The position numbers were made by a program, and so were the translations under genes. This document shows positions 3,819-31,924 of a DNA stretch of 31,924 nucleotides, one piece after another. The stretch comes from a virus, in IMG/VR virus record IMGVR_UViG_3300031949_000126, positions 1 to 31,924 of that record; one strand, given 5' to 3'. How positions within the stretch are numbered: position 1 is the stretch's first letter; every line of letters begins with the position of its first letter. The notes under the pieces were generated by a model, which saw only the letters and a program-made list of their open reading frames with translations, had not been told where the DNA came from and searched no databases.

Positions 3819-4067
3819 ATGGATAATAACGAATTCGAATTAATGGAATTCTATCGCAATCTCGATGAACCCATTACAGCACTCACGAATGAGATTGAAC
3901 GCATCGCCCTTGAAAAAGAAAAGACGGTAATCAGGGGCGCGATCCGGGAACTATTCGAGGATGTTATCGAGGAAATATTCGACAGTAACTTCCTTGAAAA
4001 TAAGGGGCGCAAATTCTCCAAGTGGGGCAAGCGCACCTGGAAGAAATTAAAGAAGGTATTCAGTTAA
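3819..4067 (+). CDS. Hypothetical small protein (82 aa) with a basic C-terminus, in an AT-rich segment
   Basis: ORF with SD aaggtga. Base composition is visibly AT-richer than the flanking tail genes. Confidence 0.5.
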   Translation: MDNNEFELMEFYRNLDEPITALTNEIERIALEKEKTVIRGAIRELFEDVIEEIFDSNFLENKGRKFSKWGKRTWKKLKKVFS

Positions 4068-4321
4068 TGGATAATCCGATCATAGATGAATTCCTAAAGT
4101 ACATTAATTCCGGTTCAATGGCCGGCGTATTTTTCTCTATTTGGTACTGGATGAAATATATCTGGCCTGTCCAGCGAAAGCAGCGCGATGATGATATACT
4201 GGCGCGTCAGGACGACAACAAATTAAAGCGCACGGAAATGCGGGTATTGGTATGTTTTCTCGAACATCTGAAAAAGGAAGGTTACGAAATCGATGTTCCC
4301 GATCTCACGAAAGAAATCTAA
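4067..4321 (+). CDS. Small membrane protein (84 aa), holin-like candidate
   Basis: TAATG overlap start at 4067 (the track's upstream GTG start at 4022 overlaps the previous gene). It has one hydrophobic segment (MAGVFFSIWYWMKYIWPV) followed by a charged tail, and it is the last gene of the late operon. Confidence 0.4.
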   Translation: MDNPIIDEFLKYINSGSMAGVFFSIWYWMKYIWPVQRKQRDDDILARQDDNKLKRTEMRVLVCFLEHLKKEGYEIDVPDLTKEI

Positions 4322-4432
4322 ACCGACGGTTTTAGAGTTACAGACGGAACGCACTGAATTAAACCGGATGCGGAGGAAAATCCTGTTGTCATTCAGCGAA
4401 ACGGATTGTGAAGCTACGGAGAAACCGCCTAA

Positions 4433-4460
4433 GAAAAACGGCTCCATAGCCGGGGAGCCG
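4433..4460 (-). terminator. Intrinsic terminator of the leftward early operon
   Basis: Minus-sense reads CGGCTCC-ccggctat-GGAGCCG-TTTTTCTT: a 7-bp GC stem, an 8-nt loop and a T5 run. It lies about 80 nt downstream of the stop of CDS 4539..4826, at the convergence point of the two operons. Confidence 0.7.
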
Positions 4461-4538
4461 ATGCTGGCTGAAAAATAATACGGAGAGCGTGGGGATACTC
4501 CTTTCTACCTTCCCTCAACCAATCCGATACCTCCCGCT

Positions 4539-4826
4539 TCACACATCTTCTCCTGTCCCGCGCTCTCCCACTCTCTCGTAAACCCGCCCCGCGCTGTCCA
4601 TGCCGTGCTCCCGGATGAAAGCCTTGCCCTTATCGGTGATGCGGAGACTACGGCACCGATGCTCTGGATTTATGAGGTAACCTTTGCGAATCATCGCGTT
4701 TAAATGGCCTTTGACATTAGTGTCAGCAATCCCTAGAAGGTCTCCAAGCTCGCGGTAACTCGCGCTAGGATGCGTCGCTATCAGGATCAGGACTTGTGCC
4801 TGCCGTGGTGTCAGTTTATCTTTCAT
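4539..4826 (-). CDS. Winged-helix DNA-binding protein resembling the LexA N-terminal domain (95 aa, no peptidase domain)
   Basis: LTPRQAQVLILIATHP..SYRELGDLLGI.DTNVKGHLNAMIRKGYL...RSLRITDKG parallels the LexA pattern LTxRQxEVxxxI....E.a..LG..S.n.v..HL.aL..KG.i. Confidence 0.6.
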   Translation of the reverse strand: MKDKLTPRQAQVLILIATHPSASYRELGDLLGIADTNVKGHLNAMIRKGYLINPEHRCRSLRITDKGKAFIREHGMDSAGRVYERVGERGTGEDV

Positions 4827-4829
4827 GGT

Positions 4830-5516
4830 TCACCCCCGCCCCCCGCCGTCGAATAGCTTGGTCTGCGCGTACTCACGGTCTATCCGCTCACAGGCGATGT
4901 CGAAGTACTTTGGCTCGCACTCCACACCTATGAACTTGCGCCCCAGCCTCGCACACGCCACGCCCGTCGTGCCACTGCCCATGAACGGGTCGAGGATGGT
5001 GCCTTTCGTGAAGCCGATGCACCACTGCATGAGCTTTAACGGTTTCTGTGTTGGATGCCAGTGTTCGCCTTGCTCACTATCTCGCAACATTCCCATCCAC
5101 ATGTGTTGAAAAACTCGCGCTGGAATATCAAGATCAGACCATGCGAGTTCACAGTCTCCGAAATCATTTACCTGACCATTTATGCGCTTATACCAGACAA
5201 GCCATGCCCTAGACGGTGGTAGTTTATCCGCAATGTAATTCCCCCCCCAGATTATGTGACTATCGCCAATGGCAAGTATTGGAGTCGGGTCAATGGGTTT
5301 ATTATCATGCGCAAATGCTTCATAAATCGGATTAATCTGTCCTTGCCATCTTTTCACGTCTCGACTTGTACCGCCCATTTTGCCGTCAGGTCGTAGGATA
5401 TTAATCCCATACGGCGGGTCGGTCACAACCGCATCCACGCCCGTCAGCGTCGGCAGGATGTCTCTGCAATCTGCGTTGTACAACGTGGCGTTCCCAATCC
5501 TCACAGGCTCATTCAT
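4830..5516 (-). CDS. DNA methyltransferase, beta-class N6_N4 type, most likely N6-adenine (228 aa)
   Basis: Motif IV (VVTDPPYG) is near the N-terminus. Motif I (DPFMGSGTTGVACARLGRKFIGVE) is near the C-terminus. Confidence 0.85.
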   Translation of the reverse strand: MNEPVRIGNATLYNADCRDILPTLTGVDAVVTDPPYGINILRPDGKMGGTSRDVKRWQGQINPIYEAFAHDNKPIDPTPILAIGDSHIIWGGNYIADKLPPSRAWLVWYKRINGQVNDFGDCELAWSDLDIPARVFQHMWMGMLRDSEQGEHWHPTQKPLKLMQWCIGFTKGTILDPFMGSGTTGVACARLGRKFIGVECEPKYFDIACERIDREYAQTKLFDGGGRG

Positions 5517-10778: not shown

Positions 10779-11474
10779 TTATCCTTCCGGTGTCGCTTCG
10801 AGTGATTTCAGATGTGCGATGACCGCTTGCCCTTCATCGTAGGTAAGTTCTGCCGGGTCCGCAGTTCGGCCTTTTGTGTACTCGCTTATCCACTCACCAA
10901 AATCCCGGCTGATTACCTTTTCGGCGATTGCGTAAATCATCTTTACCTGCTTTTCGGTCGGGTGTCCACCGTTTGTCGGCTTGGGTGTTGGCTTGGTTAC
11001 TTTCGCACGCCCCGGTACAGGCTCCCCGTCCTCACTCATTTCGTCAGCGGATACTTCACCGCCCGCTATGAGATCAGATATCGCCCGGTTAGTCGCCCGC
11101 GTTTGAGCCGTCGCGATGATGTCCTGATCCTTATTGAACCGGCGTTCAAATTTGTCAGCACCCCCCCATCCGTCAGAGAACGCACCATTAGGATGCGAAG
11201 CCCGTACAATGAACCATGCGCTTGCTACACGCCCGTCAGCATCACGCTCTACGGCATGAGATAGGATAGCCGTGGAAAGCGTGAAGGCACGCGCCAGACG
11301 CCTCCAGCCGCTTTTCTTTACGAATTCCTTCCCGGCAATCTTCTGGATATCCTCCGGTCGGATAAGCTGCCGTTTGGCAAGGTCGAATTGTAGCATCGCC
11401 TCGGCAACCTGGGTAAGGTTTGCCGGACGGACGATCATGTCTTTCGGTTCCTGTGTGATTTTGTCATCTGTCAT
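10779..11474 (-). CDS. Possible single-strand annealing / recombination protein (231 aa)
   Basis: It lies in an early operon that also contains a resolvase. IIATAQTRATNRAISDLIAGGEVSADE resembles the helix-hairpin segment of Rad52/Sak-like annealing proteins. This is a recollection only. Confidence 0.35.
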   Translation of the reverse strand: MTDDKITQEPKDMIVRPANLTQVAEAMLQFDLAKRQLIRPEDIQKIAGKEFVKKSGWRRLARAFTLSTAILSHAVERDADGRVASAWFIVRASHPNGAFSDGWGGADKFERRFNKDQDIIATAQTRATNRAISDLIAGGEVSADEMSEDGEPVPGRAKVTKPTPKPTNGGHPTEKQVKMIYAIAEKVISRDFGEWISEYTKGRTADPAELTYDEGQAVIAHLKSLEATPEG

Positions 11475-11735
11475 TTATCGTTCGCTCCCGTAACCTAAGA
11501 ATTTGAAATGTGTCGCGGCATCAATGTCGACGCCTTCTAACAGGAAGTATACCCGCGCACCAAAATAACTGTTCTCTCCGACTGACTTGTCAGCAGAGCG
11601 GATGAACGCCCGGCAGATCGCACATCGGGGAATCTTGACGGGTATCTGTCGAACACATAGCTCCCGCCAGTTCGCCGGGATGTGTTTAACCGGATAATTT
11701 GGGGAAGGGCAACTAGATTCAGTTCCTTTGTGCAT
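11475..11735 (-). CDS. Hypothetical protein (86 aa) with a CAIC motif
   Basis: SD gggagcgtgacagATG. The stop abuts the next ATG. Preferred over the overlapping ORF 11537..11779, which lacks coupling and looks Arg/Ser-biased. Confidence 0.5.
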   Translation of the reverse strand: MHKGTESSCPSPNYPVKHIPANWRELCVRQIPVKIPRCAICRAFIRSADKSVGENSYFGARVYFLLEGVDIDAATHFKFLGYGSER

Positions 11736-11880
11736 CTGTCACGCTCCCGATTTTGCAGAGTCGATCCGGTCGTGGACAACCGCCGTCACCGGCGTCGGCG
11801 AAACACTGCCAGTACTCAGGACAGCCGGTGCACGGGCAGGCTTCATCGGATGAGGTTAAGGGGATTAGTCGTGTCGGCAT
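11719..11880 (-). CDS. Candidate 53-aa Cys-rich micro-protein (MPTRLIPLTSSDEACPCTGCPEYWQCFADAGDGGCPRPDRLCKIGSVTDAQRN)
   Basis: Hand-translated ORF. TAATG overlap with the stop of 11880..12482. A strong SD (ggaggag) is supplied by the conserved 3' end of the upstream gene. Seven Cys. Confidence 0.35.
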   Translation of the reverse strand: MPTRLIPLTSSDEACPCTGCPEYWQCFADAGDGGCPRPDRLCKIGSVTDAQRN

Positions 11881-12482
11881 TACTTCTCCTCCCCGTCGAG
11901 CAGGGTCAGGACGCGGTCAACAAAATGCTTCTTCTGCCAGTCACGCTCGGCGGCATAGGCGGCAGAGGCACAGGTACCGGCAGAGGCACAGGCATAGGTA
12001 CCGGCATAGGCGGCATCGGCACAGGCAGAGGCACAGGCATAGGCACAGGCACAGGCGGCATCGGCATAGGTACCGGCATAGGCACAGGCATAGGCACAGG
12101 CACAGGCGGCATCGGCATAGGTATCGGCATAGGCGGCAGAGGCACAGACATAGGTGGCCAGTCTTACTTCCTCAATTGTCGCTTCACCTAGCAACCATTT
12201 CCGCGTTGTCTCGATTGCCGTTCGAGGTCTTTTATCATCAGGATACTTGGCCTCGAAAATTGGCAATACTCTGTCCGCAAAATCGCAGGCGAGTTCAACG
12301 CACATGCGGCGTCCCGCCTCCCCGCCTGTTTTTGCAAGCAGCCAGAACGCCCATGATAATTCCCCGCCCTTTTCGATTACATCGACTGGAGTACCTTCGG
12401 TCAGGCCGATAGACTCCGCCCACGCGATAGCCTCAGAGCAGGCATTGAGTTCTTTGGCTTGTTGAATTGTTGTTTTTAACAT
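11880..12482 (-). CDS. Repeat protein A (200 aa): helical N-domain plus an Ala-X dipeptide array, ending in DRVLTLLDGEEK
   Basis: SD ggag lies 9 nt upstream. The N-domain (AKELNACSEAIAWA ... LPIFEAKYPDDKRPRTAIETTRKWLLGEATIEEV) is followed by ATYVCASAAYADTYADAACACAYACAYAGTYADAACACAYACASACADAAYAGTYACASAGTCASAAYAA. From memory, the N-domain resembles a widespread uncharacterised bacterial/phage family that carries Ala-rich C-terminal repeats. Confidence 0.7.
   Translation of the reverse strand: MLKTTIQQAKELNACSEAIAWAESIGLTEGTPVDVIEKGGELSWAFWLLAKTGGEAGRRMCVELACDFADRVLPIFEAKYPDDKRPRTAIETTRKWLLGEATIEEVRLATYVCASAAYADTYADAACACAYACAYAGTYADAACACAYACASACADAAYAGTYACASAGTCASAAYAAERDWQKKHFVDRVLTLLDGEEK
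11951..12157. repeat. Hexanucleotide-periodic array (GGCAYA/GGCRSM units) containing a 51-bp tandem duplication (12031-12081 and 12082-12132, 1 mismatch)
   Basis: Read directly: gcacaggcataggcacaggcacaggcggcatcggcataggtaccggcatag is followed by the same 51 nt with c to t at 12124. Long spurious ORFs appear in four frames. Confidence 0.9.
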
Positions 12483-12485
12483 GGC

Positions 12486-12800
12486 CTATATCTCCTCCCC
12501 GTCGAGCAGGGTCAGGACGCGGTCAAATGCTCCACAAGCTGCCATGTGTGCAGCCGCCTCCGTTTGGGTGCAATGTCCACGTTCCCAGGCGGTGGCACGT
12601 TCCTTTCGCCACCGCTCGACCTCGGCGCGGAGCCGGGCGCGCTCGGCATAGAGTGTCTTAAGATCACCCAGCGTAATCCAGTGTTTCAACGTACACCACT
12701 TCCCATCATTGTCGATAAACTCAAACATGTTGGGTTCGACCGGATGTATATCGACCCTTACCGCTTTCTCGAACCCTTCAAAAATTGATTCATGTGTCAT
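12486..12800 (-). CDS. Protein B (104 aa), hypothetical, ending in FDRVLTLLDGEEI
   Basis: Start chosen at MTHESIF (12800), with ggag 9 nt upstream. An alternative in-frame ATG lies 15 nt further upstream at 12815; the track's own start at 12842 is a non-ATG codon further up. The last 36 nt are identical to the 3' end of gene A. Confidence 0.6.
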   Translation of the reverse strand: MTHESIFEGFEKAVRVDIHPVEPNMFEFIDNDGKWCTLKHWITLGDLKTLYAERARLRAEVERWRKERATAWERGHCTQTEAAAHMAACGAFDRVLTLLDGEEI

Positions 12801-12804
12801 GTGT

Positions 12805-12865
12805 TCACGCTCCATTCTCAGAATCCCCCCGACCCGCCGCACATCGACGGGCAGGGGAGTAGTTA
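12805..12865 (-). promoter_or_regulatory. Leader cassette copy 1: TAACTACTCCCCTGCCCGTC ... GC hairpin ... CGGGTCGGGGGGATTCTGAGAATGGAGCGTGA
   Basis: 12805-12836 is identical to 13233-13264 (32 nt), and 12846-12865 matches 13404-13423 at 19 of 20 positions. It contains the 11-bp palindrome ATTCTCAGAAT next to the SD. Confidence 0.6.
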
Positions 12866-13228
12866 TTTGATCTGTAATGCCGAGTATAATGCAGAGGCTG
12901 TCGCTTCCTCATAGGCCTTCAATGCAGAGGCTGTCGCTTCCTCATAGACCTTCCATGCAGGGGCTGTCGCTTCCTCATAGACCTTCCATGCAGAGGCTGT
13001 CGCTTCCTCATAGACCTTCCATGCAGGGGCTGTCGCTTCCTCATAGACCTTCCATGCAGGGGCTTTCAGGAAGTTAATCGCAAACCAATCCAGATCGAGT
13101 TTTAATTCAACCGCTCTGTACAAAACATCCAATCTTATCTCAACACCTTCAGGCCACTCAGCCTTGAAGATGTCCACCTGACTCTGACAGGCGTTTTTTT
13201 CGGTTAGCATTTCTTGTGTAATTTTCAT
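12863..13228 (-). CDS. Repeat protein C (121 aa): N-domain with LTEKNACQSQV..WPEG, then AWKVYEEATA(P/S) 11-residue repeats
   Basis: Start chosen at MKITQEM (13228), with ggag upstream; an alternative ATG lies 15 nt upstream. The C-terminal half is APAWKVYEEATAPAWKVYEEATASAWKVYEEATAPAWKVYEEATASALKAYEEATASALYSAL. Confidence 0.65.
   Translation of the reverse strand: MKITQEMLTEKNACQSQVDIFKAEWPEGVEIRLDVLYRAVELKLDLDWFAINFLKAPAWKVYEEATAPAWKVYEEATASAWKVYEEATAPAWKVYEEATASALKAYEEATASALYSALQIK
12891..13064. repeat. About 5.3 tandem copies of a 33-bp unit, with a perfect 66-bp higher-order duplication (12924-12989 equals 12990-13055)
   Basis: Read directly: gcagaggctgtcgcttcctcatagaccttccat alternates with gcaggggctgtcgcttcctcatagaccttccat. 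Confidence 0.9.
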
Positions 13229-13232
13229 CGTG

Positions 13233-13423
13233 TCACGCTCCATTCTCAGAATCCCCCCGACCCGTTTGGCAATTCAGTGAAACCCCTCGCGCCGCTCATT
13301 TTTTCGTTAATCCGGGTGGTTCAATTTCACACCGATTGGCACGGATTCGTCAGGGGCTTCACTCAATTGTCAATGTTCAATCCCCCCGCCCCGCCCCACT
13401 TGGGACGGGTAGGGGAGTAGTTA
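13233..13423 (-). promoter_or_regulatory. Leader cassette copy 2: the same two end blocks as copy 1, split by about 140 nt of extra non-coding sequence
   Basis: 13233-13264 equals 12805-12836, and 13404-13423 matches 12846-12865. The interior holds TTGACA-like hexamers and GC hairpins (CCCGTCCC-aagt-GGGGCGGG). Confidence 0.5.
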
Positions 13424-13430
13424 AGGCTGA

Positions 13431-13646
13431 TTAACAAATCGCTTCACTTATCAAAGTCTCAATGAATCCCTTAAATTCGCTCTGGGTAGTTTCCGCCCAG
13501 TCCTTGCCTCGCCCGTTTTCAACTTCCTGAATCATTTCATCGAACCATCTCCAATCCTCTTTGACCGATCCGGCCTTTGAGTTTCGGAGATGTTCAATAA
13601 AAGCATCTGTCATTCCGTCTGTGATAATAATTGTTACTTTGTCCAT
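13431..13646 (-). CDS. Hypothetical protein (71 aa), first gene of the leftward early operon
   Basis: Start at MDKVTII (13646) with SD ggggag. The track's upstream ATG lies immediately after the predicted -10 box, so it is unlikely to be transcribed. Confidence 0.5.
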   Translation of the reverse strand: MDKVTIIITDGMTDAFIEHLRNSKAGSVKEDWRWFDEMIQEVENGRGKDWAETTQSEFKGFIETLISEAIC

Positions 13647-13688
13647 TTTGCGCTCCCCGGATAAGGTCGGTGCCTTTAAGATGAGCAT

Positions 13689-13717
13689 AGCTTAACAGAT
13701 GGTGTACCCTTTGTCAA
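13689..13717 (-). promoter_or_regulatory. Sigma70-type promoter of the leftward early operon
   Basis: Minus-sense TTGACA - 17 nt - TAAGCT, with the extended context GCTTGACAAAG shared with the repressor promoter. It starts 2 nt after the repressor gene stop. Confidence 0.55.
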
Positions 13718-13718
13718 G

Positions 13719-13925
13719 CTAAATAATCCCTTTTCGTAAATTATTTACGGAAATTTCCATGAGGTGCAGCGTACTCGGACTCGCCTTGCGCTTGCCAGAT
13801 ATCACGTCCTCGACAGTCCGTCGGGATAGCTGGGTCTCCGCTATCAATGCGCTATTGCTGATTCCGTAAGCCTTCATTAACCGTTTGATTTTGTCCAGTT
13901 TGAGGTCGTAAATTTTCTTAGCCAT
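13719..13925 (-). CDS. XRE/Cro-CI-type helix-turn-helix transcriptional regulator (68 aa)
   Basis: KIKRLMKAYGISNSALIAETQLSRRTVEDVISGKRKASPSTL is a typical HTH_3 pattern. The gene faces away from the replication block, with promoters in between. Confidence 0.75.
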   Translation of the reverse strand: MAKKIYDLKLDKIKRLMKAYGISNSALIAETQLSRRTVEDVISGKRKASPSTLHLMEISVNNLRKGII

Positions 13926-13960: not shown

Positions 13961-13976
13961 GCCGAAATCTTGACAA
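13954..13976. promoter_or_regulatory. Inverted repeat TTGTCAAG-N7-CTTGACAA spanning both divergent -35 boxes (operator candidate)
   Basis: Read directly. These are perfect 8-bp arms centred at 13965. Confidence 0.5.
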
Positions 13977-13998
13977 GCTGGAAATTATCGGGTAGAAT
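13970..13998 (+). promoter_or_regulatory. Rightward promoter P1
   Basis: TTGACA (13970-13975) - 17 nt - TAGAAT (13993-13998). Confidence 0.6.
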
Positions 13999-14087: not shown

Positions 14088-14116
14088 TTGACAAGCCGGA
14101 TCGCCTGTGATAAGAT
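14088..14116 (+). promoter_or_regulatory. Rightward promoter P2 (replication block)
   Basis: TTGACA (14088-14093) - 17 nt - TAAGAT preceded by TGA (extended -10). It shares the context TCTTGACAAGCYGGA with P1. Confidence 0.55.
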
Positions 14117-14235: not shown

Positions 14236-15075
14236 ATGACTCGACAAGGAACAGTAATAAGACACACGCTACTTGACTCCGACACTTACGCCGCCGCCCC
14301 GGATAACGTGAGGTCGGTTTTTTTATGTTTGATCCTCGCGTCCGATGACTGGGGGAAACTACCGGACAATCCCTTGAAGCTCGCTCGGATGATTGCCGTC
14401 TGCTGCAAGCTCCCGGACGAGATCGCTATTTGCATTGAGTGGCTTATCCGGGACGGCTGCATGGAAAGATACAGAGTCGGCACTGAATCATATTTGCGCT
14501 GGACGAAATGGGACGAACATCAGGAGCGCTTAAAGAGCCGGGATAAGGCCATGTATCCTTCACCGGACGGTACGTTTGAGGCTTCAACAAATCCTCGTGC
14601 GATAGCAAAACAGTCACCGCCCGGTGTACCGCATGGTGCACCGCACGGTATACCGGACGGTTCACCGCACGGAGCCCTAAAGGAAAGGAAAGGAAAGGAA
14701 AGGAAATTAGGAGAAAGGAAAAGAAAAGAAAAGAAGGAATATCCCCCGGAATTTCACGATATGGTAACGTCCTACTTCAACGGTACCCTTTCAGAGCGGG
14801 AACAAGAAGCTCAACTGGAAGCCTTAGACGGACTGATACGCCTTGATGGTTTTGACCAGGACAAGATTTTCGCCGTCCTGCAGGCTGTCAAACAGGGCGA
14901 TCTGGATGATGCTAACTTCGAATGGTCCGCACAGATTAAATCATTCTGTGGACTCCGGGAGTTTAAAAAAGGCCGCCACGCAAACAAGATGCACAACCTG
15001 ATGGGTGCCTATGACCGCCTGCAGGAAATAACACAATCTCAGAAACCACGCCGTGCTTTCGGGGGTGAATCGTGA
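14236..15075 (+). CDS. Replication initiator / replisome-organizer-like protein (279 aa)
   Basis: It lies immediately upstream of DnaB and is translationally coupled to it. The N-domain pattern (FLCLILASDDWGKLPDNPLKLARMI...) resembles DUF1376 / phage replisome-organizer N-domains. A low-complexity linker follows, then a C-domain. Confidence 0.55.
   Translation: MTRQGTVIRHTLLDSDTYAAAPDNVRSVFLCLILASDDWGKLPDNPLKLARMIAVCCKLPDEIAICIEWLIRDGCMERYRVGTESYLRWTKWDEHQERLKSRDKAMYPSPDGTFEASTNPRAIAKQSPPGVPHGAPHGIPDGSPHGALKERKGKERKLGERKRKEKKEYPPEFHDMVTSYFNGTLSEREQEAQLEALDGLIRLDGFDQDKIFAVLQAVKQGDLDDANFEWSAQIKSFCGLREFKKGRHANKMHNLMGAYDRLQEITQSQKPRRAFGGES
14614..14673. repeat. Five tandem 12-bp iterons (consensus nnACCGCACGGT) inside the initiator gene
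   Basis: TCACCGCCCGGT GTACCGCATGGT GCACCGCACGGT ATACCGGACGGT TCACCGCACGGA, read directly. They encode SPPGVPHGAPHGIPDGSPHG. Confidence 0.8.
14679..14739. repeat. 61-nt polypurine tract, (AAGGA)x5 plus A-rich purines, interrupted only by TT
   Basis: aaaggaaaggaaaggaaaggaaaggaaa-tt-aggagaaaggaaaagaaaagaaaagaaggaa, immediately after the iterons. Confidence 0.85.
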
Positions 15076-16602: not shown

Positions 16603-16626
16603 CATCCTGACTAATGTGTTATAATA
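16599..16626 (+). promoter_or_regulatory. Promoter at the head of the late operon, with an extended -10
   Basis: TTGACA (16599-16604), 15-nt spacer, TGtTATAAT (16617-16625). The 14-mer AATGTGTTATAATA recurs at 29138. Confidence 0.55.
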
Positions 16627-16712
16627 ATTGCCAGGGGAGGCGGACGGGGTATGGGTAGGCCGGAGTATTTAGTTAACCCGTAAGTGCAACCGCGATTCAA
16701 CGTTACTTGACA

Positions 16713-23474: not shown

Positions 23475-24079
23475 TGGCGAAGGAACAGAAAATAGTTGTA
23501 AAGGGCTGGGATCGTCCGCTTACGGTTGACTGGGACTTCCAGACTGGCTTGCTCAGGCTTGAAATTCAGAGGCTTGCACCGGGCCGTGGTACCGGCAACT
23601 TAAAAGAAGCGTTTGAGCATGCCGACACAGCGGTCATAAACGAGGAAGGGAACGTAATCGATATCACCGTCGGCAAACAACACAAGGCATGGCCTTATGC
23701 GGCGATACAGGAGCATGGCGGTACGATTCCGGCATTCGATATCCGGAAAGCGCAACGTGCTTTTAAAAGTACATATCTGGCAATGGTAAGAGGAAGGAAA
23801 ATCAGCGCGGGGCGATATGGCAGATGGTTCCGGCGGTCGTCCGTCGGCGGATACAGGCCGGTCATGGTTGCATGGATTGGCGGGGTGAAAAGATTCTTTA
23901 CGAAGCGCGGCCCGATTGTAATCTTGGGGTCACATTACGTGGAAAACGGCGTTCATAACTGGTGGAGAAAGTTGTGCGGCGCGTCCAGTGGCGTCGGCGG
24001 CGGTGCTCCGGTCGGCGGGGCGATGCGGACTTACTCTTGGTCGAAGGAACATTATAGCCGGGGAATAGATAACAGATGA
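23474..24079 (+). CDS. HK97 gp10-like head-tail joining protein (201 aa)
   Basis: LAPGRGTGNLKEAF ... AWPYAAIQEHGGTIP resembles the gp10-family pattern aP..tG.L ... ya..vEfGT. Confidence 0.45.
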   Translation: MAKEQKIVVKGWDRPLTVDWDFQTGLLRLEIQRLAPGRGTGNLKEAFEHADTAVINEEGNVIDITVGKQHKAWPYAAIQEHGGTIPAFDIRKAQRAFKSTYLAMVRGRKISAGRYGRWFRRSSVGGYRPVMVAWIGGVKRFFTKRGPIVILGSHYVENGVHNWWRKLCGASSGVGGGAPVGGAMRTYSWSKEHYSRGIDNR

Positions 24080-25467
24080 GCAAAGAACTATTGGATAGAA
24101 TTATCGAAGCGATCCAATCCGTTAGGGAAGCCGGCGGAAGCAAGTATGTTATTACCGAATATGGCAAAATAAGAATATCAGACCATCCGCGATTCTTTTA
24201 TGGATTTGCGGAAGCGACTCACGGACATCCCGATTATACTTTTATTGTTTCTAAAAACAACAAAGAATTACTGTCAGATTTTGAGCTAATGGCGGAGGGG
24301 ATTAATGAAGAAATAGAGGGTACTTTTTGGCTAAAGCCAGGGCAAAATCAAGAACGATTAGCGGACGTAATTTCTGATATTGTTTCGACCGGAAAAACAA
24401 AATCTATAGAGAATGTAATAACACTCAATGAATCTACTGCTTTAATTAATAAAACCGTTCTGCCTGCTGAATTGCCTAAATGGAAATTAGATATATTAAT
24501 GCGAGATGAATTACGAGAACAGGCGATAACAAATAGAATTGCATTGGAAAGAGAGCGACTTGCTTTATTTAAGCGAGCGGATGAAGCGGCGGCGAAAGTA
24601 TACAGAGAAACCGTCCAGGCAGGAAAGGGGAAATTGGCGGGTCAGATTGCAGCCAACAGCGAGAGGGCTAGGGTAATAAAGGAAAACTTACCCGTAACTG
24701 CAAGACCTGGTTACGTCTATCGTGGTATCGAGCAGGCAGAACTCGCTGCTCCTATCCCCACCGAACCCGTCACCGGCGTTGTGGAAATAAAGCATGAGGT
24801 GGTCCCGGATTGGCCTGACGCCGCCGATATTGCAGGCGTGGGCAAGCCAGCTATCGGGGAACTGCTACCGCAGGCTCGTGAGGTTGTCGGTAAACTCGAA
24901 AGCCTGATGCTCGAAACCGGCATGACCCGTGAACAGATACGCAGGGCGGTTGCGACCGGCTACGGGAGATTCAACCCGGACACATACGCAAAGCTCGCCA
25001 GCGAAGCCGACAGCCGCCTTGCCAATTTATTCCAGGCGATGACCGAGCGGAGCCGTGGCTTAATCGCGCCGGTCGATACGCAAGAGGATGCTACCAAGCT
25101 CCGACACTTAATTCAGGACTTCGCGCCTGTTGATACTGGCGCACTCCGAGACTCATTCGACGACCCGCGCACGGTCGTTGTACAACCGGACGGGAACGTA
25201 ATGATCGACTTCTCCCTGCCGTATGCCCGCATACAGGACTTGGGCGGCACGATTCATCGGACAAGTAGCACCGGAAAATCATACACGATCCGCATATCGG
25301 CACAGCATTACGTCCAGAAGGCCGTGACCGCGTACAACGCGTCTAGGGACGCGGAGACGGTTCCTTTGCAGGTTGTATCGGAAGGCGGCATAGGTATCGG
25401 CATAGGCAGCCTGATAGCGCGTGGCATGGCTTTTGTGCGGTCGGTGAACCCGGCAGGTGCTACATAA
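24076..25467 (+). CDS. Two-part protein (463 aa): an AT-rich N-terminal domain of unknown function fused to an HK97 gp10-like C-terminal domain
   Basis: The C-terminus (IQDFAPVDTGALRDSF ... SLPYARIQDLGGTI) is gp10-like. The first 500 nt or so are visibly much AT-richer than the rest of the ORF and its neighbours. Confidence 0.55.
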   Translation: MSKELLDRIIEAIQSVREAGGSKYVITEYGKIRISDHPRFFYGFAEATHGHPDYTFIVSKNNKELLSDFELMAEGINEEIEGTFWLKPGQNQERLADVISDIVSTGKTKSIENVITLNESTALINKTVLPAELPKWKLDILMRDELREQAITNRIALERERLALFKRADEAAAKVYRETVQAGKGKLAGQIAANSERARVIKENLPVTARPGYVYRGIEQAELAAPIPTEPVTGVVEIKHEVVPDWPDAADIAGVGKPAIGELLPQAREVVGKLESLMLETGMTREQIRRAVATGYGRFNPDTYAKLASEADSRLANLFQAMTERSRGLIAPVDTQEDATKLRHLIQDFAPVDTGALRDSFDDPRTVVVQPDGNVMIDFSLPYARIQDLGGTIHRTSSTGKSYTIRISAQHYVQKAVTAYNASRDAETVPLQVVSEGGIGIGIGSLIARGMAFVRSVNPAGAT

Positions 25468-29137: not shown

Positions 29138-29151
29138 AATGTGTTATAATA
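29138..29151 (+). promoter_or_regulatory. Extended -10 promoter candidate inside the tail operon (AATGTGTTATAATA)
   Basis: This 14-mer is identical to the one at 16613-16626, with TGtTATAAT at 29142-29150. There is no good -35 box. Confidence 0.4.
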
Positions 29152-29169
29152 GTCGCAAGGAGACACACC

Positions 29170-30646: not shown

Positions 30647-31924
30647 CAGTCACGTTCAGCAATCCGACTTACAACCTCAATGCCAATCCCGCGCTGGGGA
30701 AAACCGCCACGGACATCCCGGTCGAGACGTTCGCAAAGCAACACGCCTTCGACAGCATCAGCAGCGCGACGCTATATATCCGGACGGATGTACTTTCGAT
30801 TTACAGCCTGGAAACCGCTGACTTGACGAACGCCTGTCAACTTAACAGCACCGTCACGGTTATGGAAGGGGCGGTCTATCATTTCAGAGGTTACGTTTTC
30901 AGCAAGCCCCTTTTTAAAACTTACGAGGACGGGAATTATCTGGTTGTCGAGTGCATGGGTTGGGACGGGATTCTCGGACAGACGCTTTGCGTGGACGCTG
31001 CCGGAAACGACATCTGGACGATGGAATCAAGTAAGTATGCGCTGACAAACATGCCTTTGCAGGCGACGGCGGCTTACGGGACATTCCAGGGTAGCACGTT
31101 GTGGCCTGACCCGGACGATGCGACGGGATTAAAGTGTTATGTCACAGGCGCAAATGATGTTTTGTACACGGACGGAGCAGGCGCGGCGCTATCGGCTGTT
31201 GCCACGACGATTATTCTAACAAGTACAACGAAGGGTTTTATCCCTCGCGGCTGGGTAAAGATTGACTCAGAATGGATATATTTTGACGGATATGACAACT
31301 CAAATGCGGATACAAAATACCGCCTGTATAACTGCGTCCGTGGTCAGTTGGGTACGGCGGCGGCTCCTCATGCGGAGGGCGTCACGGTCTATGAAAAGCT
31401 CGGCAAGCAAATCGCGCCCGCCGCGCTCGACCTCCAAAACGACCCGCTTGGCGGCGTCGCATGGAAAACGGTAAGGCGCGGGGCTGAATTCGACGTCCAC
31501 GACACGCTAGGATGCTTTGTGTTGCGCGATCCGGCGGCAGGCACATACAGAGCCACATACTCGGTTTACGACGAAGACAGCTTACTTGACGTGACGTCAG
31601 TGCCTATATCGTTGAGCGATGTGGTGACGAAGATAATGACAGGCACGGCTGCCAACTTCGGCCCCGGGTTCGCGACTGGTGACCTTGATTTTGATGCAAT
31701 GGCCGTGGGATGGCTAAAAATCAATCGCTACGATTATGATCCGCAACAGAAACAACAATACGCTTTCGACGCAATTCAGGAATTGCTGGCCGCCGTCGGC
31801 CTGGAACAAGAGGTTAAGTTCTGGTACAAGCATTCGACCGGAAAATTCCGCCTGACATGGATAGCAAATGCCACGTCTAGTTTTACGCTTCCGAACACGT
31901 CGCGGGTGGAGCATGAGTTCACGC
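30634..31924 (+). CDS. N-terminal part of the large tail protein (Tal/baseplate-hub-like); it continues across the circular junction to 1221
   Basis: I translated by hand from ATG 30634 to the window end and met no stop. The frame matches 1..1221 through the 127-bp overlap. The ORF track omits it because it has no stop inside the window. Confidence 0.7.
   Translation, partial: MPQITVTFSNPTYNLNANPALGKTATDIPVETFAKQHAFDSISSATLYIRTDVLSIYSLETADLTNACQLNSTVTVMEGAVYHFRGYVFSKPLFKTYEDGNYLVVECMGWDGILGQTLCVDAAGNDIWTMESSKYALTNMPLQATAAYGTFQGSTLWPDPDDATGLKCYVTGANDVLYTDGAGAALSAVATTIILTSTTKGFIPRGWVKIDSEWIYFDGYDNSNADTKYRLYNCVRGQLGTAAAPHAEGVTVYEKLGKQIAPAALDLQNDPLGGVAWKTVRRGAEFDVHDTLGCFVLRDPAAGTYRATYSVYDEDSLLDVTSVPISLSDVVTKIMTGTAANFGPGFATGDLDFDAMAVGWLKINRYDYDPQQKQQYAFDAIQELLAAVGLEQEVKFWYKHSTGKFRLTWIANATSSFTLPNTSRVEHEFT
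31798..31924. repeat. Second copy of the terminal overlap (identical to 1-127)
   Basis: See the first feature. Confidence 0.95.

Follow-up and report, generated by a model that had tools for sequence, protein, structure and literature searches.

Repeat-protein genes in a probable variable accessory-gene slot at the head of the early operon of an uncultured phage

Four small genes lie back to back near the start of a leftward early operon in an uncultured phage, and two of them, here called A and C, encode proteins with tandem repeats. The DNA analysed, referred to throughout as the window, is the 31,924 nt of IMG/VR record IMGVR_UViG_3300031949_000126. Positions 1-127 and 31798-31924 were found 100% identical over 127 nt in a repeat search of the whole window, so the assembly is circular and 31,797 bp (~31.8 kb) long once the overlap is counted a single time. 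All on the minus strand, and in the order in which they are read, the module comprises gene C (12863-13228, 121 aa), gene B (12486-12800, 104 aa), gene A (11880-12482, 200 aa) and a Cys-rich micro-open reading frame (micro-ORF; 11719-11880, 53 aa) whose ATG overlaps the TAA stop of A. An earlier reading of this DNA, made from the letters alone and called here the sequence-only reading, had delimited these four genes, and all four check out in the ORF list and in the sequence.

That reading had also assigned the module to a leftward early operon, and the assignment holds. A sigma-70-like leftward promoter (13960-13932, minus strand; TTGACA, a 17-nt spacer and TG-TATTTT) is followed by the first gene of the operon, encoding a helix-turn-helix (HTH) regulator of 68 aa (13719-13925, minus strand) that matches phrog_9103, a transcriptional repressor, with E 4e-7; the repeat-gene module sits ~0.7-2.2 kb downstream of the two. 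Promoter-like plus-strand sites at 13970-13998 and 14088-14116 face the leftward promoter and lead to replication genes. The HTH gene and the facing promoters together put the module at the head of the leftward early operon.

Two sequence blocks occur twice in the module. A 36-nt block, the tail, stands at the 3′ ends of A (11885-11920) and B (12491-12526), and a 32-nt block, the leader, stands ahead of C (13233-13264) and B (12805-12836); all four copies are on the minus strand, and a repeat search confirmed that each pair is 100% identical, as had been reported. The tail encodes DRVLTLLDGEE in both proteins, so that the last 11-12 residues of A are common with B. When up to three mismatches were allowed, the leader was found in two copies only (0 expected in 100 shuffles), and an exact search of IMG/VR for it gave no match. 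The claim that nothing comparable exists elsewhere in the genome stands for its interior, the 127-nt circular end overlap being the sole other long exact repeat in the whole window. All of these features exist in the sequence and clearly exceed chance expectation.

Each of the two blocks includes a Shine-Dalgarno sequence. In the leader it is GGAG, 9 nt ahead of the ATG of C and of B, and the 3′ part of the leader copy ahead of B, GGAGCGTGA, is the native ribosome-binding region of that gene. GGAGGAG lies 9 nt before the ATG of A, the GGGGAGGAG of the tail copy in B being positioned as a ribosome-binding site for A, and the GGAGGAG of the tail copy in A lies 5 nt upstream of the micro-ORF ATG. 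A cassette joined at either block would therefore receive a ribosome-binding site before the next start codon.

The module was compared with two related phages, L028 (IMG/VR 3300025121_000112, complete, 31.3 kb) and L029 (IMG/VR 3300009285_001314, 36.5 kb). On its upstream side, blastn aligns window 14086-13647, the HTH gene and the following intergenic DNA, with L029 3335-3775 at 78%, and window 13718-13651, the intergenic DNA after the HTH gene, with L028 4408-4477 at 80%. This conserved intergenic stretch (13647-13718, minus strand) is the end of the left anchor, homology to the relatives stopping at 13647-13651, just before the ATG at 13646. On the downstream side window 11916-11719, which covers the tail and the micro-ORF, aligns with positions 4777-4973 of both L028 and L029 at 80% and 83%, respectively, and the start of this homology coincides with the first base of the 36-nt block or adjoins it, so that the tail copy in A is the left edge of a block conserved with the related phages. 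The HTH gene is thus the conserved left anchor, and the micro-ORF the right anchor, of what we call the slot.

Between these fixed anchors different phages carry different small genes. The slot of the window (13646-11921, 1.73 kb) holds an ORF called orf85, then C, B and A. That of L028 (4478-4776) holds B′, a homologue of B, and nothing else, giving the order HTH gene, B′, micro-ORF, with no orf85, C or A, and that of L029 (3776-4776) holds four other small ORFs. One further alignment, specific to L028, joins window 12813-12663, the leader and N-terminus of B, to L028 4472-4624 at 77%. The sequence-only reading had proposed alignment of related genomes as a check, and this is its outcome: differing gene sets between shared flanks.

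The identical blocks sit exactly at the joints, the tail copies flanking the body of A and the leader copies flanking C. In three of three phages the gene preceding the micro-ORF ends in an RVL.LL.GE tail; in L029 it is the last slot ORF (89 aa), which ends in YTRVLTLLDGEVTDGTTN directly before the micro-ORF. The tail copy in B is 97% identical to the L029 tail, against 80-83% for the adjoining micro-ORF. The sequence-only reading had described the segment as recently duplicated and recombining. Recombination is borne out by relatives that share flanks and differ in genes. The shared 3′ end, on the other hand, is no evidence that A and B are duplicates; it marks where a block begins that related phages have conserved and that is present twice here.

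The leader of B′ in L028 reads GGAGCGTGAACGAACATGACAC, and window homology to it begins at 12813. It follows that the 3′ part of the 32-nt leader is the own ribosome-binding region of B and that the copy before C is secondary; the match also fixes the starts of B at MTHES and of C at MKITQ, in preference to the in-frame ATG or GTG further upstream. The homology that L028 shares with L029 begins midway through a gene, within B′ and the 89-aa ORF (4666/4678), so joints may also fall inside genes and give in-frame chimeras. By the same reasoning A reads as an in-frame chimera, with the C-terminal residues that it has in common with B.

We consider it probable that the segment serves as a variable slot for accessory genes at the start of the early operon and that its joints are recombinogenic; A, and probably C, would be early binding inhibitors. 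Cassettes would be stacked or removed by recombination at short shared sequences, and joints inside genes would keep the frame and so give rise to chimeric proteins. A would be excised precisely by recombination of one tail copy with the other, and C in the same way by recombination between the leader copies.

One comparison is with the lambdoid phages, whose pL (leftward promoter) operon carries accessory genes such as ral, sieB, kil and ea10 in lambda. As here, small non-essential genes follow closely on an early leftward promoter and precede a RuvC-like resolvase gene, the set of genes varies among relatives, and short conserved sequences mark the module edges. Comparisons of HK97/HK022 by Juhala et al. 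in 2000 and Clark et al. in 2001 reportedly found mosaic ‘boundary sequences’ between phage genes. In the present locus, differently, some joints are intragenic and produce in-frame chimeras, and the joint sequences occur twice in one genome. No homology of the locus to lambda genes was found.

Orf85, the first slot gene (13431-13688, minus strand), is 71 aa long if it starts at the ATG at 13646, which is also the length given by the public gene caller. It is not present in either relative, and family searches gave no significant match, those found lying far below cut-off. Directly after its stop codon is a GC-rich hairpin (13382-13417, minus strand; -31.5 kcal/mol, z = -3.3), and a second one follows directly on the stop of C (12825-12859, minus strand; -28.7 kcal/mol, z = -2.4); the 5′ arm of the first, TAACTACTCCCCTRCCCGTC, recurs after the C stop codon (repeat family D8). 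Neither has a U-tract, and a terminator scan reports neither, so they do not qualify as intrinsic terminators. Between the first hairpin and the leader of C is a spacer of ~116 nt (13265-13381) flanked by CGGGGGGATT as direct repeats. No such spacer is present at the junction after C, and the stretch resembles one more insertion at this joint. A TTGACA hexamer is present in the spacer, but it received no promoter call and no Rfam match; Rfam reported no family at threshold.

These signals bear on an alternative that we regard as unlikely, namely that the operon is stable and that the identical blocks were kept by selection on expression signals: Shine-Dalgarno sequences, translational coupling, and RNA hairpins that end or stabilise transcripts. 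Each block does have its Shine-Dalgarno sequence, suitably spaced from the next ATG for translation, the tail is conserved above its surroundings across phages, and GC-rich hairpins follow two of the stop codons. A ribosome-binding site, however, needs ~6-9 nt and not 32-36 identical ones, and the hairpins lack U-tracts and are absent from the terminator scan. When folded as RNA, the tail region is no more structured than shuffled sequence (z about 0), a value which likewise led us to reject a hairpin hiding the ribosome-binding site in the tail. In addition, the gene content of the relatives changes exactly at the blocks.

B is a near-orphan. Among 5.8 billion clusters it matches itself only, and a phmmer search of 1.84 billion representatives found one true homologue, B′ (P0242; 54% identity, E 2e-14), which is the sole slot gene of L028 and is also present on the short groundwater contigs L026 and L027. 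We do not claim homology between the B′ tail ADWKSRETAYTRVL and the C-terminal helix ERDWQKKHFVDRVL of Imm5-like proteins, as the spacing is off by one residue and the stretch is short. The micro-ORF was missed by the public gene caller, and a protein scan of metagenomes found nothing; an exact 23-nt pattern re-found the L028 phage only. Both L028 and L029 have 53-aa homologues that keep all six Cys, and the differences show a bias towards third codon positions (9, 9 and 16 at the three positions for the relatives against the window; 2, 1 and 8 for L028 against L029), so it most likely encodes a real small Cys-rich protein. Small Cys-rich proteins, the conserved micro-ORF included, recur in the slot region across the relatives, and at 3899-4501 in the slot of L029 two small Cys-rich ORFs (112 aa and 66 aa) stand where the window has orf85 and C.

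The sequence-only reading had likened the N-domain of A to a widespread uncharacterised family with Ala-rich repeats, and that family can now be named. A scores 55.7 bits against the Pfam family Imm5_like, PF21805 (curated cut-off 25; E 5.9e-15), with residues 55-187 aligned to profile positions 5-126 of 129, and 17.8 bits against Imm5 proper, PF14423, under the cut-off of 25. Nearly all of its 251 homologues are labelled PF21805. By these matches A belongs to Imm5_like as an ordinary member. Proteins of the family begin with a stretch in which an Ala-Cys pair and a Trp are conserved; next come the core F-E-x-K-Y-P-D-D-K-R-P-R-x-A-I-E, Ala-rich AAYAAADAAYAA-type repeats of highly variable length, and a final helix beginning ER.WQ. 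A follows this plan, having an N-domain, the YPDDKRPR..AIE core, Ala/Tyr/Cys repeats and a C-terminal helix, the end of which is the tail common with B.

The DNA repeats of A (11952-12154, minus strand) are degenerate, with periods of 6, 12 or 51 nt built on GCC-TAT/TGT/GAT codons. Tandem Repeats Finder gives 84% matches and 8% indels at period 51 and ~70% matches at period 6 or 12, so the earlier description of near-perfect repeats, which fits C, does not fit A. Many differences between its units are TAT/TGT or GAT/GGT. Of the 70 residues from 109 to 178, 33 are Ala, 10 Tyr and 10 Cys, and this repeat is unusually Cys-rich, its Cys positions being mostly Ala or Tyr in the relatives read. Elsewhere in the window, 25386-25410 matches the antisense of the A repeat at 24/25 nt and encodes GGIGIGIGS near the C-terminus of a 463-aa ORF (24076-25467), which is probably a low-complexity hexanucleotide coincidence.

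Relatives of A occur in diverse cellular genomes, among them those of Chloroflexota, Acidobacteriota, Thermotogae, Bacteroidota, Patescibacteria and several archaea; tblastn of A against the cultured-phage collection gave one weak match, to Methanosarcina virus MetMV. The exact protein is recorded solely on one 31,938-nt metagenome contig, and among 50,697 deposited phage records megablast found no DNA nearly identical to the module. One Imm5-like gene, in an acidobacterial metagenome-assembled genome (L017, 5887-6456), has a run of N inside its Ala-rich repeat, which is either database masking or an assembly gap; if it is a gap, such repeats break short-read assemblies.

The AlphaFold model of A is all-alpha, with a mean predicted local distance difference test (pLDDT) score of 83.7 and values of 62-75 in the repeat region. 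In a Foldseek search of BFVD it matches a phage Imm-5-like domain-containing protein (template modelling (TM) score 0.75, E 4.8e-5). Against the PDB there was no significant fold match, the best natural (non-designed) one being 7JTU chain B (probability 0.72, TM 0.42-0.44, root-mean-square deviation 3.9, 127 columns, E 3.0). This chain is SsdAI, the helical immunity protein of SsdA, a type VI secretion system toxin that is a DYW-family single-stranded DNA deaminase (PMC7901873). Imm5 had been predicted computationally to confer immunity against DYW-type deaminases and CdiA-C toxins (Zhang et al. 2012, PMC3482391), so that the fold match and that prediction agree with each other. Like A, SsdAI is all-helical with ~190 residues, and SsdA is in the DYW deaminase group tied to Imm5; no sequence-profile link to SsdAI was found for A, and the window contains no deaminase. 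We treat the model-based resemblance to SsdAI as a lead, not as membership. With its Imm5_like/Imm5 relatives A shares the core motif (YPDDKRPR..AIE..R.W..GE.T.EE), the Ala-rich repeats, the ER.WQ helix and the all-alpha fold, while differing in its phage early-operon location, in having no toxin gene beside it, and in a C-terminal end common with the unrelated gene B.

Gene C encodes an N-domain of ~53 aa, five 11-aa units of the form APAWKVYEEAT and a degenerate sixth. Its 33-nt tandem array (12889-13064, minus strand) has 5.3 copies with 96% matches and no indels (Tandem Repeats Finder), and every difference between the units alters the amino acid. The protein has 193 homologues at E <= 1e-3 (best E 4.6e-53), almost all without a family label, and tblastn against the cultured-phage collection gave no match; judged by these searches the family is large, uncharacterised and almost entirely metagenomic. 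Its members have an N-domain with near-invariant L8, A13, C14, Q17, F21 and W48, and then a tandem array of 4 to 10 or more 11-residue units, whose consensus is A-P-A-W-K-A-Y-x-E-A-T. C shows both parts, an N-domain of ~50 aa with A-C..Q...F and W and then at least four A.A.KAY.EA units (five, in register), and differs from the family in that its units are more uniform. Newer Pfam entries PF27195 and PF28068 label some relatives of C in precomputed annotation, and PF27195 appears on relatives of both A and C. C-type repeats are joined elsewhere to other heads, namely DUF7666 and at least two heads without family assignment, and DUF7666 is also fused to Imm5-like bodies.

A and C had been said to open with a similar N-terminal signature. 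Pairwise comparison by BLASTP does not sustain this (E 0.067, not significant), but the profiles of the two N-domain families align in hhalign with a probability of 95.4% and E 2e-8 over 51 columns, and in the two models the N-domain elements come in an identical order: strand, helix, helix, strand, helix, helix. Profiles and models thus support homology of the two N-domains. Sequence searches of the PDB with A, B, C and two A-family profiles returned low-complexity or insignificant matches only, and an NCBIfam scan of the module gave nothing useful.

The AlphaFold model of C (mean pLDDT 96) has a small N-domain followed by an unbroken helix from residue 58 to 120, with block-mean pLDDT of at least 94; a fold search against the PDB gave no meaningful match. 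Unit positions 1, 3, 5, 7, 9 and 10 are conserved in the family and 2, 4, 8 and 11 are variable. In the geometry of an 11/3 helix positions 3, 6, 7 and 10 form one stripe and 4, 8 and 11 an adjacent one, which sets a conserved Ala/Tyr face beside a variable face, and the latter may be a binding surface.

Such a helix could also bind membranes. On this alternative, which we find distinctly doubtful, C and perhaps the repeats of A would be membrane- or surface-binding amphipathic 11/3 helices, modelled on apolipoproteins, alpha-synuclein and late embryogenesis abundant (LEA) proteins, that serve at the cell envelope in host takeover or superinfection exclusion, instead of being soluble effector inhibitors. 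Over the 55 repeat residues of C the hydrophobic moment peaks at 98.2 degrees per residue (0.31), exceeding all 2000 shuffles (maximum 0.306); the model, of a monomer, is one long continuous helix despite a proline every 11 residues, and the C-type repeats of relatives weakly match the stalk proteins DivIVA, Scy, ATP synthase b and FliH, at the level of composition. The 11-residue hydrophobic periodicity in a continuous helix is therefore present in C. Against membrane binding, the moment is modest and any exact 11-residue repeat yields such a peak, the sequence shows no evident transmembrane segment or signal peptide, no structural match supports it, and variable positions 4, 8 and 11 (also 2) on one face suit protein binding equally.

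The tandem repeats are not peculiar to this phage but a property of two large families, and here they are just unusually homogeneous. Among C-type proteins unit identity averages 0.68 within proteins and 0.55 between proteins; the C of the window, at 0.87, ranks 98th of 100, more uniform than 97 of 99 relatives. Copy-number variation, which the sequence-only reading had anticipated, is seen among near-identical alleles from different metagenome samples rather than in this phage, and so is shown for the families only. The C-type alleles P0176, P0160 and P0168 (161, 172 and 183 aa) are 96-97% identical and differ by 11-residue gaps at different places with intact ends; P0205, P0125 and P0202 form a further series of 119, 130 and 141 aa, and A-type allelic series likewise vary in repeat length. 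From these alignments, copy-number variation is real for both the C-type and the A-type family, whole units being gained and lost, and repeat length would change through slippage or unequal recombination. On a 42.9-kb phage contig (IMGVR_UViG_3300033480_000007) we also saw two C-type paralogues at separate loci (L008, 4992-5696; L009, 844-1350), which are 93% identical at their 5′ ends and have unrelated flanks and different unit numbers.

A partial parallel is the gene-amplification ‘accordion’ at T4 tifA, a counter-defence locus at which whole genes are amplified under selection (PMC9391042). As here, an accessory locus is altered via recombination at short repeats. The present locus differs in that unrelated cassettes are stacked and copy changes occur within genes, in 11-codon units, and in being known from sequence alone.

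As to function, A and probably C would act early in infection as stoichiometric binding proteins, neutralising a host or competitor effector in the style of toxin immunity, with the repeat helix as an evolvable contact surface. A conflict-related role, as a participant in an arms race or as an inhibitor, is plausible from the combination of early genes, an accessory slot that varies among relatives, an A family named for predicted immunity, fast-changing repeats and variable residues on one face.

A broader version, which we put forward as quite unlikely, is that A-type and C-type proteins make up one large phage-borne class of modular inhibitors, a repeat-based counter-defence scaffold distributed through cassette slots in early operons. 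Each would combine a swappable head (the A/C N-domain, DUF7666 or others) with an Ala-rich helical repeat, whose exposed stripe (positions 4, 8 and 11) and unit number would shift by slippage and so retune binding to defence or toxin effectors.

Several observations weigh against the interpretation of the module as a recombining slot that supplies early binding inhibitors. The collections searched contain no more than two related genomes; A and C may be insertions in this phage, or the relatives may have lost them by deletion through the repeats, and conservation of the tail and leader could be due in part to their encoding ribosome-binding sites, not to recombination. PADLOC gave no match for A, B, C, the micro-ORF or the neighbouring genes, and literature searches on family names and sequence motifs found no experimental work. 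The SsdAI match has an E of 3.0, and A-family profiles reach no PDB chain beyond low-complexity or insignificant matches. At two cellular Imm5-like loci whose ORF translations were inspected by eye, the genes are solitary, with no obvious toxin neighbour and ordinary chromosomal genes around them, and the scanned ORFs of the window contain no toxin-family match, so that the toxin adjacency looked for in immunity proteins is missing here. Finally, the copy number of C was read from a short-read assembly of 33-nt repeats.

This last point raises an alternative that we judge very improbable, that the repeats and duplicated blocks are short-read assembly artefacts such as collapsed or chimeric strain variants. 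The contig comes from a k-mer assembler, the 176-nt array of C (33 nt x 5.3) exceeds the k=141 in the contig name and is about a typical short-read length, and the run of N in the acidobacterial Imm5-like gene lies inside such a repeat. All four ORFs are nonetheless intact and in frame, each protein fits the full-length architecture of its family, the joints match boundaries in two independently assembled phage contigs, and the contig self-closes with its 127-nt overlap. A diversity-generating retroelement or other directed mutator aimed at the Ala/Tyr/Cys/Asp repeat of A, for which the many A-to-G differences among repeat codons (TAT to TGT, GAT to GGT) might speak, is extremely improbable and we rejected it, because no reverse-transcriptase match was found in the scanned ORFs and no template-repeat copy elsewhere in the window, and hundreds of homologues have repeats of this kind.

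The rest of the window is that of a phage. Encoded on the plus strand are a replication initiator (14236-15075), whose gene has iterons inside it, a DnaB-like helicase, the large terminase and a tape-measure protein; on the minus strand, beyond the HTH regulator and further downstream, are a RuvC-like resolvase, a PAPS (3′-phosphoadenosine-5′-phosphosulfate)-reductase-like gene and a DNA methyltransferase. Inside the initiator ORF a 12-nt iteron, ACCGCACGGTGT, is present in 4.8 copies at 14616-14672, followed by AAAGG x12 at 14679-14739, and this placement of iterons within an initiator gene resembles the lambda O-type origin. A 26-nt motif beginning AATGTGTTATAATA occurs twice (16613-16638 and 29138-29163, 85% identical); both copies contain the extended -10-like TGTTATAAT and precede plus-strand gene blocks, and this is probably the shared promoter motif mentioned in the sequence-only reading.

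Directly downstream of the micro-ORF is orf86 (11475-11735, minus strand), whose start, MHKGT, is conserved in the relatives. The next protein (10779-11474, 231 aa), for which a Pfam scan gave no match, shares only its last 69 residues with proteins of 321 and 324 aa in the relatives (L028 5245-6210 and L029 5245-6219), at 86-90% identity, and its N-terminal part differs. Alignment thus points to another intragenic mosaic joint.

A adds one more protein to a known family, C falls in a large family that is uncharacterised, and the locus is a known kind of phage mosaic hot-spot; these findings contradict no current ideas on phage mosaicism or accessory genes. The locus provides a clean natural example of how small early genes are stacked and swapped at joints that bear ribosome-binding sites, and the length polymorphism of the 11-residue repeats, which comes in whole units, offers a concrete and testable signature of fast evolution. 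At present the A family is labelled just ‘putative immunity protein’ and the C family has no useful name. If the proteins are indeed inhibitors, two very large and almost wholly metagenomic families would gain a role in phage-host conflict.

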